Source: Clostridia bacterium (lineage in GTDB: Bacteria; Bacillota; Clostridia; TANB77; UBA1234). Taken from it: 64,000 nt of DNA. The stretch covers positions 138,826 through 202,825 of the forward strand of contig JAFWYG010000005.1 in assembly GCA_017522765.1 (NCBI GenBank), in the 5' to 3' direction. A model generated the notes under the pieces. The model was not told the origin of the DNA. It did not search any database and was given only the letters and a program-made list of their open reading frames with translations. Made by a program: the position numbers and the translations under genes. Below are positions 2,071 to 12,887 of the stretch, one piece after another; position 1 is the stretch's first letter, and each line of letters opens with the position of its first letter.

Positions 2071-2100
2071 GAGCGGTATTTGCCGTTGTGGTAAACTTTG
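2071..2100 (+). promoter_or_regulatory. Putative sigma-A promoter for the Tad-like operon
   Basis: ttgagc-17 nt-(tg)gtaaact immediately upstream of the cpaB-like gene. It lies in a divergent intergenic region. Confidence 0.4.
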
Positions 2101-2140
2101 AATATGTAAGAGTTTGTCATGTAGAGGAGAGGATTATATT

Positions 2141-3436
2141 ATGATGTTAGGACCTATGAAAAAAAGAATGGTTACTACAGGAGTTATTGCTTTTATAATT
2201 CCAACAATTATAGCTGTTGGCGTTTTTATGGCTTATTCTAAAAAGAAAAACGAAGAGATTGCAGAATTAAAAGTAAAAGCTGCTACTGTTGAAAAATATA
2301 TTGCAACAGCAGATTTGCCAATTGGGCATATCGTTACAGCTGAAGATATTGAAGTTGCAGATGTAAAAGAAATTAGTGCACCAGTTAATTCTTTTAATGG
2401 AGTAGAAAAATTAATTGGACAAAAATTAAAAGTTCCTGTATTCAAAGGTACAATAATGACTTCTTCAATGTTTTACGAATTAGAAGATTTTGTGAGAGAA
2501 GACGTAAGAAGAAAAGAATTCAATATGATTTCACTACCAAGTGACTTGGTTGAGGGTGATTATATAGACGTTAGAATAATCTTTCCAACTGGTGAAGACT
2601 ATGTAGTTGTTGCTGGTAAAGAAGTGAAAAAAGTTGGTTCTTCTCATGATTCTAATGCAATATTCTTAGATTTAACTGAAGAAGAAATAAATAGAATGTC
2701 GAGTGCTGTAATCGAATCTTACGTTTCAGGTGCTGTTAGATTATATGCTGTTAAGTATTCTAACTGGTATGAACAATTGTATGATGAAGAATCAGTTGAC
2801 TTTGTAAAGAGATATGAAGAAACAGTTGAAGCGTTGATTGAAGCTTCAAAAACAACAGAAGAAGTTTTAGTTTCTGGCGAAAAAGTTCCGATGAGAGATG
2901 AGAGCGGAGAAAAAGTAAGAAATGAAAGTGGAGAAGTAATTTTCATTCAAGAACCAGATAAAATAGAAATAAGAGACGTAATAAAAACTGAAGAAGAACT
3001 TGAAGATGAAGAAATTGCAATAGCAATGAATCTTGATGTTGAAGATGTAAAAGCTATAAGAACAGCTAGAAAAACAAAAGATAAAGTTTTACTTGCTTTA
3101 TATAGCAATAAAACAGTTTTAACTGAAACAAAAATAAAAGATACATATCCTGTTAGAACTGAAGTTGCGGCATTAATCGTAGCAAACCCAAATATTTTGG
3201 AAGAGTTAGATGCTAAATACAACATTCAAGAATTAGAAAGTCGTAGATTTGCTTTATTAACAACTGGTATTTATGGATACGAATATAGTACTCCAGAAGA
3301 AGTTAATGAAGTTGTTTTAGAAAACATTAAAGTAAAATTAGATGAAGAAATCGCTACACAAAAAACAGAAAGAAGCGAATACTTACAATCTATAATTCGT
3401 GCGGGTATGGTTCAAAGCCAAACACAAGCACAATAA
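2141..3436 (+). CDS. cpaB: Flp/Tad pilus assembly protein CpaB-like (N-terminal TM anchor, SAF-type domain) with a long acidic C-terminal extension
   Basis: ATG at 2141 follows SD agaggagagg. An N-terminal TM helix is followed by ...PIGHIVTAEDIEVADVKEISAPVNSFNGVEKLIGQKLKVPVFKGTIMTSSMF, resembling the CpaB/RcpC SAF domain. At ~431 aa it is longer than typical CpaB. The C-terminal half is Glu/Lys-rich with short SGEKV repeats. Confidence 0.65.
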   Translation: MMLGPMKKRMVTTGVIAFIIPTIIAVGVFMAYSKKKNEEIAELKVKAATVEKYIATADLPIGHIVTAEDIEVADVKEISAPVNSFNGVEKLIGQKLKVPVFKGTIMTSSMFYELEDFVREDVRRKEFNMISLPSDLVEGDYIDVRIIFPTGEDYVVVAGKEVKKVGSSHDSNAIFLDLTEEEINRMSSAVIESYVSGAVRLYAVKYSNWYEQLYDEESVDFVKRYEETVEALIEASKTTEEVLVSGEKVPMRDESGEKVRNESGEVIFIQEPDKIEIRDVIKTEEELEDEEIAIAMNLDVEDVKAIRTARKTKDKVLLALYSNKTVLTETKIKDTYPVRTEVAALIVANPNILEELDAKYNIQELESRRFALLTTGIYGYEYSTPEEVNEVVLENIKVKLDEEIATQKTERSEYLQSIIRAGMVQSQTQAQ

Positions 3437-3451
3437 GGAGGAAGAAAAATC

Positions 3452-4192
3452 ATGAAGTGCATAGGTTTTATTGGTAAAGTTGATAAAACAGATTTAATCT
3501 CGTATGTATCAAAAGTAATTACTTGTATGGGAAAAAAAGTTATTATGATTGATGCTACAGTTGATCAAAAAACAAGATATACAATACCTGTTATGTCAGA
3601 GATGGAAGACCAAGCACAATATATTATTCAACAAGATGGAGTTGAAATAGCGATTGGTTTTTCTAACATACTAGAACTAAAAAAATATTTACTTTCAAAA
3701 GGTGATGATTTCAATGATTACGATTACGTAATCATCGATACAGATCAAGAAGAAATGATTGAAGAATATGATTTGAAAGACGCAAACGAAAATTTCTTTG
3801 TTTCTTCTTATGATAAATACTATATCCACAAAGGAATAGATCTTTTAAGATGTCTATGTGCATTAAAAAGAAGAACAGATACAGAGAGTAAGATTTCAGT
3901 AAATAAATGTGTATTCTACAGTGATGTTAATACTGCTGATAGTAAATACATAGAAAGACTTGCAGATAATCTTCCAATAGAATGGAAAGCTTCTCAATTA
4001 AACTATCCATACGATCATGGTGATTTATCTGTAAATATTCAAAACCAATACACAAACAAATTTGATGTAAGACTTCTTTCAAAAGAATATAAGGAAGCTC
4101 TTGCTCAAACTGTACAAGCAATAACAGAAGATGATTTAAAAATGATTAGAAAAGTTATTAAGAACATTGAGAGAGTAGCTAAATTCTCTTAA
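3452..4192 (+). CDS. MinD/ParA-fold protein with degenerate Walker A (TadZ/CpaE-like pseudo-ATPase)
   Basis: IGFIGKVDKTDLISYVSKVITCMGKKVIMIDA aligns with the MinD P-loop region (xxSGKGGVGKTTxxANLAxALAxxGKKVLLIDAD), but GKGGVGKT is replaced by GKVDKTD. YDYVIIDTDQ is Walker-B-like. SD ggaggaag lies upstream. Confidence 0.55.
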   Translation: MKCIGFIGKVDKTDLISYVSKVITCMGKKVIMIDATVDQKTRYTIPVMSEMEDQAQYIIQQDGVEIAIGFSNILELKKYLLSKGDDFNDYDYVIIDTDQEEMIEEYDLKDANENFFVSSYDKYYIHKGIDLLRCLCALKRRTDTESKISVNKCVFYSDVNTADSKYIERLADNLPIEWKASQLNYPYDHGDLSVNIQNQYTNKFDVRLLSKEYKEALAQTVQAITEDDLKMIRKVIKNIERVAKFS

Positions 4193-4214
4193 TAGGAAAG
4201 GATGGTAATTTGAT

Positions 4215-11097: not shown

Positions 11098-11113
11098 AAA
11101 GGAGTTGCCTTAA

Positions 11114-11614
11114 TTGGGAGATTCATTAAGTATAGTTTTTACAGTTATAGTTGCAGTTTTAATAATGTTCTTATTTCCAATGCTTGATAGTTGGGAAAGG
11201 CAAGATGACCTTTCTTACATGGCGGTATATTCAGCAACTACAGACTTTGTTGATGCAGTTAGAAATACAGGAGCCTTAACAAGTTCAATGTATAATTCTT
11301 TTTTGACTCAAATCTATGGTACTGGTAACTCGTTTGAAGTAACGTTAGAACATAGAGAGTATTTGGTGGTTCCAACTGGAGATATAAATAAGCCAACGGA
11401 AGTAGATTATTTATACCATTATACTTCAGAAATTGAATCGGCTTTAAATTCAGGAGATGTATATGCTTTTGATAAAGGTGATTTCTTCTATGTATCAGTA
11501 AAAAATACAAATAAAACACAGGCTACAATGATGAAACAAACTATCTATGGAACTTTGATGGAATCATTCTCAATTGGTGTCCCATACGGTGGACAAATAA
11601 AATCAAGTTATTAA
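11114..11614 (+). CDS. TadE-like / minor pilin-like protein
   Basis: MGDSLSIVFTVIVAVLIMFLFPMLDSW is an N-terminal hydrophobic helix; the gene sits in the pilus gene cluster, with SD aaaggag upstream. Confidence 0.4.
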   Translation: MGDSLSIVFTVIVAVLIMFLFPMLDSWERQDDLSYMAVYSATTDFVDAVRNTGALTSSMYNSFLTQIYGTGNSFEVTLEHREYLVVPTGDINKPTEVDYLYHYTSEIESALNSGDVYAFDKGDFFYVSVKNTNKTQATMMKQTIYGTLMESFSIGVPYGGQIKSSY

Positions 11615-11651
11615 AATATATGAAAAATTATAGGAAGGAGGAAATAATAAT

Positions 11652-12854
11652 TTGAAATTACAACATTTTTGTATAATATTTTTAATAATTATTCTTCCTT
11701 TTTCTATTATAGCAAGGAATACCACTAGAGAGTATATGCTAACATTAAGAGATCAAGTTCGACTAAATAACGTTATTGATAGTGCAACGCAAGATGCTTT
11801 AGATATGATTGTTGATTTAAATGATGAATTTCAATCTTTATATTTTGCACAACAATTTAATATTACTCAAAGTGTAGCTAAAGAAGCAGTAAAGAGCTTT
11901 TTCCAAACTTTAGCTATAAATTATAATATGCCATACATTGAAGGAGCTACAGAATCTTACTTTAGTACATACGTACCTGCAATTGTATTAATAGGATATG
12001 ACGGTTTTTATATTTATTCTATCAATGAAGACAATAATGGTGTTTTCGCATATCAAATGTCTCCAAAGATACCATATGCGTATGAAGAAGGAGATATGAT
12101 TGTTAATTTTACATTAGGGAATGACGTAAAGATTCTTTGTAAAAATGTATATTATGAAGGCACAATGACAGATAATTATATAAGTGATACGACGCCAAAG
12201 TATAATGAGTATTTAACTGCTTTTGGAGGAGATGCGGATAAACTTAAAACATATCTTCCTGATATAACGGATGATATGTCTTTAATAATTTATGTTTTGG
12301 ATAGAAGTTCCACTGCGACAATTCCAGATTTCTTGTATGCTAATGCTGGTGAAACACCTTTACTTCAAGATTATTCGAGAGCAAGTGGAGATTTGCCCGC
12401 TGGTAAATTCCATGAAACGCGTAGAAATGTTATTATGACTACAATTCGTGAAGTTTTACAAGAAGAAATAAACTCACATTCTGCATATGCAAGTTTGATG
12501 GGCTCTAGTTATGACTTTAGGCTTCCTGAAATTTCTAATGATGATTGGACAAACTCAATTAATGATATTTCCGTAATGGCGTTTATTCAAGGTTTACCAA
12601 TTGGTATAAATCAATATTATAACAACTATGCTCTTGGTGGTGCTAAGATTGTTAATGCAAGTTATTTGTATGGATATAAAAATGGAGCACAAATGTATTA
12701 TCATGACGAAAAATGTCCAGATGTACAAGCTTTACTTGCTTTAAATATGGATGATCCTGCAAATCAAGCTGAGATAAACAAGTGGCAAATATTTTTAAAT
12801 AGAGTTGAAGCTGCTAGTCAAGGATATTTTCCATGTAATAAATGTAAACCATAA
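11652..12854 (+). CDS. Pilus-associated protein of unknown function with N-terminal signal-anchor (possible TadG-like tip/adhesin component)
   Basis: TTG start after SD ggaaggagg. The N-terminus MKLQHFCIIFLIIILPFSIIARN is followed by a 380-aa domain ending ...GYFPCNKCKP. It is the last gene of the cluster, followed by a terminator at 12858-12887. Confidence 0.4.
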   Translation: MKLQHFCIIFLIIILPFSIIARNTTREYMLTLRDQVRLNNVIDSATQDALDMIVDLNDEFQSLYFAQQFNITQSVAKEAVKSFFQTLAINYNMPYIEGATESYFSTYVPAIVLIGYDGFYIYSINEDNNGVFAYQMSPKIPYAYEEGDMIVNFTLGNDVKILCKNVYYEGTMTDNYISDTTPKYNEYLTAFGGDADKLKTYLPDITDDMSLIIYVLDRSSTATIPDFLYANAGETPLLQDYSRASGDLPAGKFHETRRNVIMTTIREVLQEEINSHSAYASLMGSSYDFRLPEISNDDWTNSINDISVMAFIQGLPIGINQYYNNYALGGAKIVNASYLYGYKNGAQMYYHDEKCPDVQALLALNMDDPANQAEINKWQIFLNRVEAASQGYFPCNKCKP

Positions 12855-12857
12855 AAT

Positions 12858-12887
12858 AAAAGACTACTTTTAAGTAGTCTTTTTTGT
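12858..12887 (+). terminator. Rho-independent terminator ending the Tad-like operon
   Basis: aaagactactt-ttaa-gtagtcttttttg. Confidence 0.75.

Follow-up and report, generated by a model that had tools for sequence, protein, structure and literature searches.

[quoted passage not shown] This cluster would encode a strongly diverged filament machine of the Tad type (type IVc-like) in a monoderm, spore-forming gut Clostridium, whose putative filament is known from the genes of an uncultured lineage. The preliminary description of the region as a monoderm's Tad-type type IV filament locus with non-canonical components is supported by a CpaF-like ATPase, a SAF-domain protein and the fold of the platform. 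Kim et al. reported the cluster as a hallmark trait of TANB77, an order of uncultured gut Clostridia in which it is single-copy and present in 122 of 129 species (95%) (Nat Commun 2024, 15:10726, PMC11680825). Their reference cluster comprises genes 927–938 of HRGM_Genome_2725 (CAG-245 sp000435175), and these numbers are used for the orthologues below.

2114–3436, + strand: g1, CpaB/RcpC-like protein (N-terminal TM helix, SAF domain, long and acidic C-terminal region); orthologue of 927
3452–4192, + strand: g2, degenerate ParA/MinD-like, TadZ-like protein; orthologue of 928
4215–5036, + strand: g3, second ParA/MinD-like, CpaE-like protein; orthologue of 929
5082–7001, + strand: g4, membrane-anchored CpaF/TadA-type secretion ATPase; orthologue of 930
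7049–9391, + strand: g5, polytopic inner-membrane platform, 780 aa, approximately 7 TM segments; orthologue of 931
9566–9970, + strand: g6, probable major pilin, 134 aa, N-terminus MDNASKALIMAGAIL..., with a strong Shine-Dalgarno sequence and a 3' hairpin
9993–10021: hairpin with a 13-bp stem, directly 3' of g6
10123–10536, + strand: g7, second pilin-like protein, 137 aa, N-terminus MENASRAMIMAGGVF..., sharing the N-terminal motif of g6
10558–11097, + strand: g8, minor-pilin-like protein, 179 aa, N-terminus MDDNLFEAIQ...; equivalent of 936 by position
11114–11614, + strand: g9, minor-pilin-like protein of 166 aa with an N-terminal anchor, N-terminus MGDSLSIVF...; orthologue of 937
11652–12854, + strand: g10, large pilin-like protein of 400 aa with an N-terminal anchor; orthologue of 'pilin 938'
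12858–12883 and 12899–12927: two hairpins in the intergenic region where g10 and murC converge

Inspection of the open reading frames revealed ten co-directional ORFs with 15–174 bp between them and a Shine-Dalgarno sequence ahead of each one. Three contigs of the same species, whose genes were called independently, likewise carry ten genes. The run of genes described beforehand is real, but its count of eleven is not, and the list given for it itself sums to ten. A close relative (L006) does carry eleven genes in the block, because its first pilin gene is tandemly duplicated. The true start of g1 is likely the ATG at 2141, which yields 431 aa and is supported by a Shine-Dalgarno sequence and by gene calls of that length. 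As had been described, the block is flanked by nifS on the upstream side and by murC downstream. With its terminator-like hairpins, the stretch 12858–12927 between g10 and murC forms a bidirectional terminator region, whereas the upstream flank holds divergent promoters and no terminator; of the terminators claimed for both sides, only the downstream one was recovered. The hairpin behind g6 may work as a terminator or attenuator and thereby keep major-pilin output high relative to minor pilin.

The window's proteins match the locus on a Clostridium sp. CAG:245 scaffold gene for gene and in the same order. The gene lengths on that scaffold (357/230/279/639/692/164/.../236/177 aa) fit those of the reference cluster in Table 1 of Kim et al. 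(358/231/280/640/693/165/.../237/178; PMC11680825). Shared with this reference are the gene order, the CpaB-like protein, the two ParA-like proteins, the TM-anchored ATPase, the fused platform and orthologues of the MENASKAL-type, 937-type and 938-type proteins, and the published assignments (CpaB, TadZ, CpaE, a TadA bearing a single TM helix, and TadC fused with TadB; PMC11680825) agree with ours. However, the platform (780 vs. 693 aa) and the CpaB-like protein (431–440 vs. 358 aa) are longer in the window, while g10 is shorter (400 vs. 621 aa) and ends in a Cys motif. Furthermore, the window has only two MENASKAL pilins, lacks the 934-type signal-peptide gene and the GKT of g3, and carries nifS upstream and no spoIVB downstream. 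Within TANB77, the window represents a divergent sub-lineage.

Synteny was followed in 80 species-representative genomes retrieved from a set of at least 566 matching ones. The block was collinear in 80/80 loci, all incomplete cases being contig ends, and murC lay downstream in 29 loci, including those of distant relatives. The GC content is approximately 0.30 in the block and its surroundings alike, and no GC or skew anomaly was found across the block. These data and the published species count mark the cluster as a trait conserved in the lineage, contrary to the accessory insertion that the preliminary description had proposed; the synteny comparison suggested there as a check revealed an order conserved across the relatives. 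Its term 'under-described Tad variant' is half right at best, since a publication on the cluster appeared in 2024.

The ATPase g4 consists of an N-terminal TM helix, an extended N-domain and the P-loop core. Among solved structures, CpaF was the top match (272 residues, E 2e-8 with the single sequence and 7e-10 with the profile), followed by VirB11, which matched in the P-loop only (E 0.018), and no archaeal ATPase was found among the structure matches of the profile. In addition, g4 matches TIGR03819 (E 2.9e-6) and is 65% identical to 930. The TM helix, the Walker A motif GEQG[CS]GKTT and the His box THHAKT were each present in 80/80 orthologues. Together, these matches and motifs show g4 to be a TM-tethered CpaF/TadA-type ATPase with intact catalytic motifs, and the earlier assignment holds, with CpaF as the sole solid structure match. 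The platform g5 presumably corresponds to TadC and TadB in fused form. Its predicted model fits the cytoplasmic fold of GspF/PilC/SpoIIIAB at moderate model confidence (pLDDT 67, pTM 0.40), and it shares 42% identity over 766 columns with its CAG:245 counterpart. However, family and profile searches detected no T2SSF sequence signal at all, so that the TadB/C-like platform noted earlier stands by fold and not by sequence.

For g1, the match to SAF (PF08666; 27.2 bits, E 5.9e-6) exceeded the cut-off of 21, whereas the match of residues 35–121 to CpaB (TIGR03177) remained below that model's cut-off despite an E-value of 3.5e-9; the CAG:245 homologue was found by BLASTP at 2.6e-21. The profile of g2 matched a single solved structure, MinD 4v02, in the P-loop region (E 0.42), while that of g3 matched CapB 4jlv (E 0.0032), the ParA-family protein 3ea0 (0.0033) and Get3 (0.05). 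Both proteins align with their reference orthologues (BLASTP 3e-43 for g2 and 928, 5e-30 for g3 and 929), and structural homology of the g2-type protein to TadZ was reported by Kim et al. (PMC11680825). Nevertheless, at the sequence level the ParA-like assignments of g2 and g3 are marginal. The P-loop was said to be lost in both: g2 orthologues conserve GF[IV]GxxDKT and therefore retain Lys-Thr, whereas the Walker A GK[ST] of g3 is indeed lost, but only in the window's sub-lineage, with TGKT or TGQT found in many orthologues.

Five proteins of the block (g6–g10) carry an N-terminal hydrophobic helix, and profile searches revealed no sequence link of these pilin-like proteins to the Flp or TadE families. 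The pilin-like N-terminus is near-invariant (M-[E/D]-N-A-x-K-A-L, scored on 229 unique paralogues and orthologues) and is located at the first possible codon in 243/257 ORFs. Three to six pilin paralogues occur per locus, the window has two pilins of the MENASKAL type, and the Flp motif G/XXXXEY is absent from the pilin-like proteins, as had been noted. In the AF2 model of g6 (pLDDT 84), a helix of approximately 54 residues (2–55) is followed by a small beta domain, giving a lollipop architecture; none of 354 g6 homologues is annotated. While g7 is related to 932 (BLASTP 2e-9) and g9, conserved in nearly all loci, to 937 (7e-32), g8 has a single N-terminal hydrophobic helix, orthologues in close relatives only and no match in domain and family profile searches. 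The last protein, g10, matches 938-type proteins (BLASTP 2e-13, for the CAG:780 counterpart, and 4e-12) and is a candidate TadG-type tip adhesin. Among its orthologues, which measure between 236 and 968 aa, VWA domains (E 2e-8) and Listeria-Bacteroides repeats (E 2e-19) occur, whereas the C-terminal GY[YF]PCxxC[HKN]P is confined to the window's sub-lineage. Between close relatives, no part of the block diverges more than the pilin genes (61–68% identity vs. 99% for the ATPase), which would argue for surface exposure.

Canonical Tad loci are arranged as flp-tadV-rcpCAB-tadZABCDEFG in Aggregatibacter and as pilA-cpaA-K in Caulobacter, and the window's order rcpC-tadZ-tadA-tadB/C-...-tadE/F/G presumably parallels that of Aggregatibacter. 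A single CpaF/TadA-type ATPase, a CpaB/RcpC SAF protein and a ParA-like TadZ/CpaE are common to both. In contrast, the window lacks the TadV/CpaA peptidase, the secretin, TadD and the Flp motif, its platform is a single fused gene without detectable T2SSF sequence, its ATPase is membrane-anchored, and it has two ParA-like genes. A TadZ of Eubacterium rectale was reportedly described by Xu et al. in 2012. Together with the tad locus of Bulleidia extructa (PMC12786226), it represents Gram-positive loci that share the monoderm setting, the missing secretin and the TadZ/TadA core with the window. However, PilA1 and PilA2 of Bulleidia are predicted to have no globular domain (PMC12786226), a trait absent from the TANB77 cluster, and Tad pilins are described in PMC11067988 as lacking one, unlike the modelled pilin of the window. 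As the preliminary description stated for the locus, profile searches found neither an A24 peptidase nor a secretin, in the block or in the 64-kb window, and an A24 peptidase was found within approximately 10 kb of the cluster in 0/80 species. With no nearby prepilin peptidase in 80 species and pilins that lack the canonical motif, the cluster does not account for prepilin processing, a defining step in building type IV filaments, which counts against the Tad-type reading.

The same machine could instead be mainly a DNA-uptake (competence) pilus that draws DNA to ComEC, and not an adhesin. Tad-like pili are reported to take up DNA in other bacteria, and the window encodes DprA (33372–34184, TIGR00732 8.7e-67) and ComEC (58527–60826, TIGR00361 2.9e-62), while a ComG-type operon is absent from the 64 kb. 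A precedent is found in Liberibacter, whose Tad pili are linked to DNA uptake in PMC8513845. We nonetheless consider this role unlikely, as the competence genes lie unlinked at 20–45 kb from the cluster, and the hypervariable pilins and the modules on g10 orthologues suit adhesion better. Even less probable is a pseudopilus-type secretion or envelope-spanning device (a T2SS/SpoIIIA analogue), possibly linked to sporulation, in place of an extended pilus. Here, spoIVB adjoins the cluster in many relatives (Peptidase_S55, 2e-85), and spoVG and gerW/ytfJ are close by in the window; however, such a neighbourhood is weak evidence for a common function. The NCBIfam SpoIIIA equivalogs gave no match to the ten proteins at E <= 1, and since SpoIIIAB itself has the GspF fold, its match to the platform does not discriminate between the systems. 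Compared with the SpoIIIA channel (SpoIIIAA ATPase, GspF-fold SpoIIIAB), the cluster has CpaB, ParA-like proteins and pilin paralogues but no AG/AH ring proteins, its ATPase is specifically CpaF-like, and several pilin paralogues per locus with a modular terminal protein are typical of real pili.

The archaeal class III signal peptide follows the pattern [KR][GA] and then a hydrophobic residue, and the K-A/L spacing of MENASKA-L fits it. Like archaeal Epd-like pilins, those of the window have a short N-terminus before the hydrophobic stretch, with K-A ahead of that stretch, and lack a Glu at +5. The class III signal peptide domain TIGR04205 matched weakly (E 0.09), and one gene encodes the platform, which is also the case for most type IV pilus systems of archaea (Denise et al. 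2019). It is nevertheless highly improbable that the locus is an accessory island, acquired horizontally between nifS and murC, that keeps an archaeal Epd-like ancestral state. The accessory-insertion part of this reading is refuted by the synteny, uniform composition and prevalence described above. Moreover, the whole 7-residue N-terminus is near-invariant, unlike a disposable leader, and no EppA, PibD or FlaK peptidase accompanies the cluster. The ATPase profile points to bacterial CpaF, and its nearest reported sequence relatives are Firmicutes TadA/CpaF proteins of Roseburia or Paenibacillus (Kim et al., PMC11680825), contrary to the proposed proximity to archaeal Epd-like ancestors.

Beyond the work of Kim et al. 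2024, our analysis adds the N-terminal motif of the pilins, the absence of G/XXXXEY, the lack of A24 within approximately 10 kb and the adhesin modules of the last gene. In the Tad-type machine favoured here, a hexameric g4 would turn or drive the TadC/TadB-like platform, which would extract the pilin-like subunits from the membrane and stack them into a filament. The shaft would be formed by g6, with g7, g8 and g9 priming or capping the filament and g10 at the tip bearing lineage-variable binding modules. The CpaB-like g1 may serve as a conduit through the wall, and the degenerate ParA-like g2 and g3 may scaffold or position the machine, comparable to TadZ/CpaE. The most likely role of this machine is gut adhesion.

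Ten open reading frames (ORFs) lie on the plus strand between positions 2114 and 12854, separated by gaps of 15–174 bp and each preceded by a Shine-Dalgarno (SD) sequence. In order, they encode a CpaB-like protein (g1; 440, probably 431 amino acids), two ParA/MinD-like proteins (g2 and g3; 246 and 273), an ATPase (g4; 639), a platform protein (g5; 780), and the pilin-like proteins g6 to g10 (134, 137, 179, 166, and 400). The "eleven genes" of the preliminary description were a miscount, since ten ORFs are present, independent gene calling for three conspecific contigs gave ten as well, and its own list sums to ten; no credible eleventh ORF was found in the gaps at 9392–9565 and 9971–10122. 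Apart from the points corrected here, the observation is real. The GC content is approximately 0.30 in the block interior and exterior alike, and spoVG and uvrC follow beyond murC. The features of the window referred to in the text are:

790–1980, minus strand: NifS-type cysteine desulfurase, the upstream flank (TIGR03402 at 4e-149)
9993–10021: hairpin with a 13-bp stem, after g6
12933–14303, minus strand: murC, the downstream flank
14522–14854: SpoVG
19771–20244: GerW/YtfJ-family sporulation protein (TIGR02874 at 2.4e-47)
33372–34184: dprA
58527–59264: ComEC, first of two ORFs, DUF4131 N-terminal part
59327–60826: ComEC, second of two ORFs, ComEC/Rec2 core

The label of a spore-former is supported by SpoVG and the GerW/YtfJ-family protein in the window. 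A 518-aa protein (16874–18430) showed a weak DnaB_C match over residues 188–260, with the rest of its sequence unassigned, and is conserved beside uvrC in relatives, with 81% identity in the related locus L004. In Rfam and tRNA scans, the 64-kb window contained neither a tRNA gene nor an Rfam family at threshold, and this includes the region upstream of pheS/pheT (42962–46391), where one might expect a T-box leader.

Kim et al. (2024, Nat Commun; PMC11680825) looked for genes confined to TANB77 as an order and described "a stretch of 10-14 genes", which is single-copy, present in 122 of 129 TANB77 species, and almost exclusive to this order. On the strength of this near-exclusivity, the host genome of the window probably belongs to TANB77. 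In their CAG-245 reference cluster, a CpaB-like gene is followed by two genes for COG1192 proteins, a COG4962 ATPase, a polytopic platform, and pilin-like genes. Here, 927 is CpaB with one transmembrane helix (TMH), 928 and 929 are TadZ and CpaE by structure, 930 is TadA/CpaF (640 aa, one TMH), 931 comprises 693 aa and eight TMHs with a TadC-like first and a TadB-like second half, 932–937 are pilin-like, and 938 (621 aa) has partial similarity to TadE/PilV (PMC11680825). Among our retrieved loci, the Clostridium sp. CAG:245 scaffold is represented by L038, the gene lengths of which agree with the table of Kim et al. The window proteins matched this locus gene for gene in BLASTP, with E values of 2.6e-21 (g1), 3.4e-43 (g2), 4.8e-30 (g3), and 6.9e-32 (g9), identities of 65% for g4 and 42% over 766 columns for g5, and a match of g10 to the 938-type protein of L067 at 2e-13; g8 was matched by position only. 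The fixed gene order of the TANB77 cluster is also that of the ten genes in the window. Its ATPase of approximately 640 aa with one TM helix corresponds to 639 aa and an N-terminal TM helix here, and its platform of approximately 690 aa, with about eight TM segments and no known domain, to 780 aa, about seven hydrophobic segments, and no Pfam match. With the lengths of L038 fitting the published table and the window matching L038 throughout, it can be concluded from sequence comparison that the window holds a divergent orthologue of this already known cluster and adds no new kind of system. Most TANB77 loci have one additional short gene within the run of pilin genes (15339–15809 in L038, with equivalents in L015, L017, L025, L067, and L077). 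It is 934 of Kim et al., its product has an MKK...-type signal-peptide or TM N-terminus without MENASKAL, and it is absent from the window.

Relatives were found by scanning one genome per GTDB species with ATPase peptide patterns. At least 566 genomes contained a relative of the ATPase, and the 80 retrieved were all from uncultured gut Clostridia. In tblastn searches, gene order and orientation were conserved for the whole block across 80 of 80 loci, among them that of Clostridium sp. CAG:245; the 13 incomplete loci lay nearly all at or near a contig end. In 29 loci, distant ones included, the block is followed by murC in opposite orientation; nifS lies upstream in the six closest relatives only. 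The proposal of an accessory insertion in the preliminary description had to be given up, as the block is collinear in all 80 loci and its linkage to murC is retained in distant relatives; this is the outcome that the preliminary description itself had named as refuting it. In the main TANB77 group, spoIVB is located between block and murC (for example at 19827–21068 of L017, Peptidase_S55 at 2e-85 with a PDZ domain); the sub-lineage of the window has no spoIVB at this position.

The machinery proteins were recognised to different degrees. In g1, a TM helix at the N-terminus is accompanied by a SAF domain scoring above the Pfam cut-off, and its first 87 residues after the TM helix matched the CpaB model TIGR03177 with an E value of 3.5e-9, below the model cut-off. 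The SAF-domain protein RcpC/CpaB of Tad/Flp systems thus has its counterpart here in g1. For g4, Caulobacter CpaF was the sole substantial match among solved structures (2e-8 with a single sequence and 7e-10 with a 33-sequence profile, 272 residues), with VirB11 (0.018, confined to the P-loop) and PilT (0.34) as the next hits. The matches to TIGR03819 (2.9e-6) and PF00437 (0.0047) were both under cut-off, and orthologues at 66–68% identity carry a precomputed PF00437. The N-terminal TM helix is found in 80 of 80 orthologues, as are Walker A (GEQG[CS]GKTT) and the His box (THHAKT). As judged from the CpaF match and this helix, g4 is a membrane-anchored CpaF/TadA-type ATPase, as had been proposed. 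In Tad/Flp systems, the ParA-superfamily protein is TadZ/CpaE. The proteins g2 and g3 are only marginally recognisable as members of the ParA/MinD superfamily: the g3 profile matched CapB (0.0032), the ParA-family protein 3ea0 (0.0033), and Get3 (0.05), and the g2 profile matched MinD at just 0.42. Paralogy of the two was not demonstrated, with a probability of 18% in the profile-profile comparison. Loss of the P-loop in both, as described before, is only partly right: GK[ST] of g3 is lost in the sub-lineage of the window, but TGKT or TGQT is found in many orthologues, and g2 keeps a conserved GF[IV]GxxDKT.

For the platform g5, Pfam scans with the single protein, with 28 orthologues, and with 70 representatives at 23–69% identity revealed no sequence relative, and profile searches against PDB sequences gave no match. 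The platform of Tad/Flp systems consists of the T2SSF-domain proteins TadB and TadC, and no sequence link of g5 to T2SSF emerged from these searches. Almost none of the distant g5 relatives carry a name. The AlphaFold model is all-helical (pLDDT 67, pTM 0.40) and has the GspF fold in common with SpoIIIAB. Since no sequence relative exists in Pfam or PDB, the assignment as platform rests on fold, topology, and position. An internal duplication was sought by comparing the N- and C-terminal halves with hhalign, and neither the shallow (E 0.12) nor the deep alignment (E 0.069) was significant.

The Tad-like reading of the block holds, and the TANB77 cluster is an extreme Tad variant with a tethered ATPase, a fused platform unrecognisable by sequence, and pilins with a globular domain. 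The suggested proximity to archaeal systems is not supported by the ATPase: archaeal ATPases were absent from the solved structures matched at E values up to 10, and CpaF was matched at 7e-10. Roseburia or Paenibacillus TadA/CpaF were reported as its nearest relatives (PMC11680825). A SpoIIIA channel is linked to the block solely by the GspF fold common to the platform model and SpoIIIAB. As no SpoIIIA NCBIfam model matched any of the ten proteins at E ≤ 1 and the VirB11 match of the ATPase is confined to the P-loop, a SpoIIIA or conjugation identity was rejected. The component identities come from these results, and the remaining mechanism is drawn by analogy with Tad pili. A membrane-tethered ATPase hexamer would power the fused platform, and pilins would be extracted and polymerised. 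The shaft would be formed by g6, which has the strongest SD and the hairpin after it, with g7, g8, and g9 as putative minor subunits, g10 as a modular tip adhesin, g1 as a wall conduit, and g2 and g3 as scaffolds. The filament most likely serves adhesion. It may also serve competence, given that dprA and comEC are both within the window; no comG-type operon was found in the 64 kb.

The pilin-like proteins g6 and g7 start with MDNASKAL and MENASRAM, respectively, followed by approximately 20 hydrophobic residues, and in g8, g9, and g10 a hydrophobic helix begins a few residues from Met1. Over 257 ORFs with 229 unique N-termini, the pilin-like N-terminus was near-invariant as M-[ED]-N-A-x-K-A-L (M1 100%, E/D2 99%, N3 100%, A4 98%, K6 75%, A7 97%, L8 97%), and residues 1–8 were better conserved than the hydrophobic core after them. 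In 243 of the 257 ORFs, no start codon is available between the upstream stop and the motif Met, and 255 have an SD, which rules out a longer leader. No G/XXXXEY occurs in these N-termini, as already noted in the preliminary description. Tad/Flp pilins possess this motif and no globular domain, whereas the modelled window pilin, g6, has a beta-rich globular domain; in the model (pLDDT 84), a helix of residues 2–55 is followed by a small beta domain. Fold searches matched no known pilin, and neither Flp_Fap nor TadE was found by Pfam among the pilin-like proteins. An acidic residue is located at position 2 in the pilins and at position 3 in g9-type proteins, and the largest pilin-like protein, the presumed tip, is devoid of it. 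GspK-type tip subunits lack the acidic residue as well.

Tad/Flp systems have a dedicated A24 prepilin peptidase, TadV/CpaA, whereas none was found in the block, in the 64-kb window, or, for 80 species, within approximately 10 kb of the cluster, which agrees with its reported absence from the locus. The screen covered 1.63 Mb with the motif GxGD[VAIL]K and was complemented by scanning the ten longest multi-TM ORFs of the plus strand with Pfam. There is roughly one chance in four that TANB77 pilins are leaderless or retain their fixed 7-residue N-terminus. This reading draws on the start-codon and SD evidence, the conservation of residues 1–8 beyond that of the hydrophobic core, the modelled g6 helix that begins at residue 2, the lack of a cleavage motif common to g9-/g10-type N-termini and pilins, the presumed tip protein that would resemble GspK-type subunits in having no acidic residue, and the lack of a peptidase near the cluster. 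Alternatively, cleavage after K6-A7 could be the work of a peptidase of A24 or archaeal type with its gene elsewhere. The sequence K-A|L fits an archaeal class III site, and a match to TIGR04205 was weak (E 0.09). Class III signal peptides are processed by enzymes of the EppA/PibD/FlaK type, and no peptidase was found near the cluster. The invariance of the N-terminus over its whole length and its fixed length fit a retained N-terminus better than a class III site. If the N-terminus is indeed retained or the pilins are leaderless, a type IV filament-like machine would operate with no A24 prepilin peptidase at all, and the role of Glu5 would pass to the invariant acidic residue 2 (3 in g9-type proteins).

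Compared with the nearest species representative (L006), the ATPase and g3 were 99% identical and the flanking genes 84–98%, and the pilin-like proteins reached 61–68% (window 9566–11097 versus 14487–16392 of L006), where the first pilin gene is duplicated in tandem. Judged by these identities, no part of the block evolves faster than the pilin-like proteins, and their divergence is suggestive of diversifying selection or of recombination in surface subunits. Orthologues of g10 range from 236 to 968 aa, and those of some species bear modules of the VWA or Listeria-Bacteroides repeat type. In the sub-lineage of the window only (the window plus about 14 loci related to it), the C-terminus of g10 is a tail GY[YF]PCxxC[HKN]P with H-x3-C before it. 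This tail resembles the zinc-binding motif of Ada type (Ada_Zn_binding in Pfam, E 0.17), which is odd for a presumed extracellular protein.

Kim et al. mention no peptidase, leader, or motif (PMC11680825); the pilin N-terminal motif, the start-codon evidence, the peptidase search, the pilin divergence, and the modularity of g10 are additions to the published cluster. The abundance of TANB77, an order that is prevalent in the gut and uncultured, has been linked to the response to checkpoint-blockade cancer therapy, and recombinant 938, the g10 orthologue, was reported to activate dendritic cells via TLR4 and, in mice, to improve the response to anti-PD-1 (PMC11680825). Immunological follow-up is aided by two of our results, namely that the pilins evolve fastest and that 938-type proteins are modular, with length and domains depending on the species.
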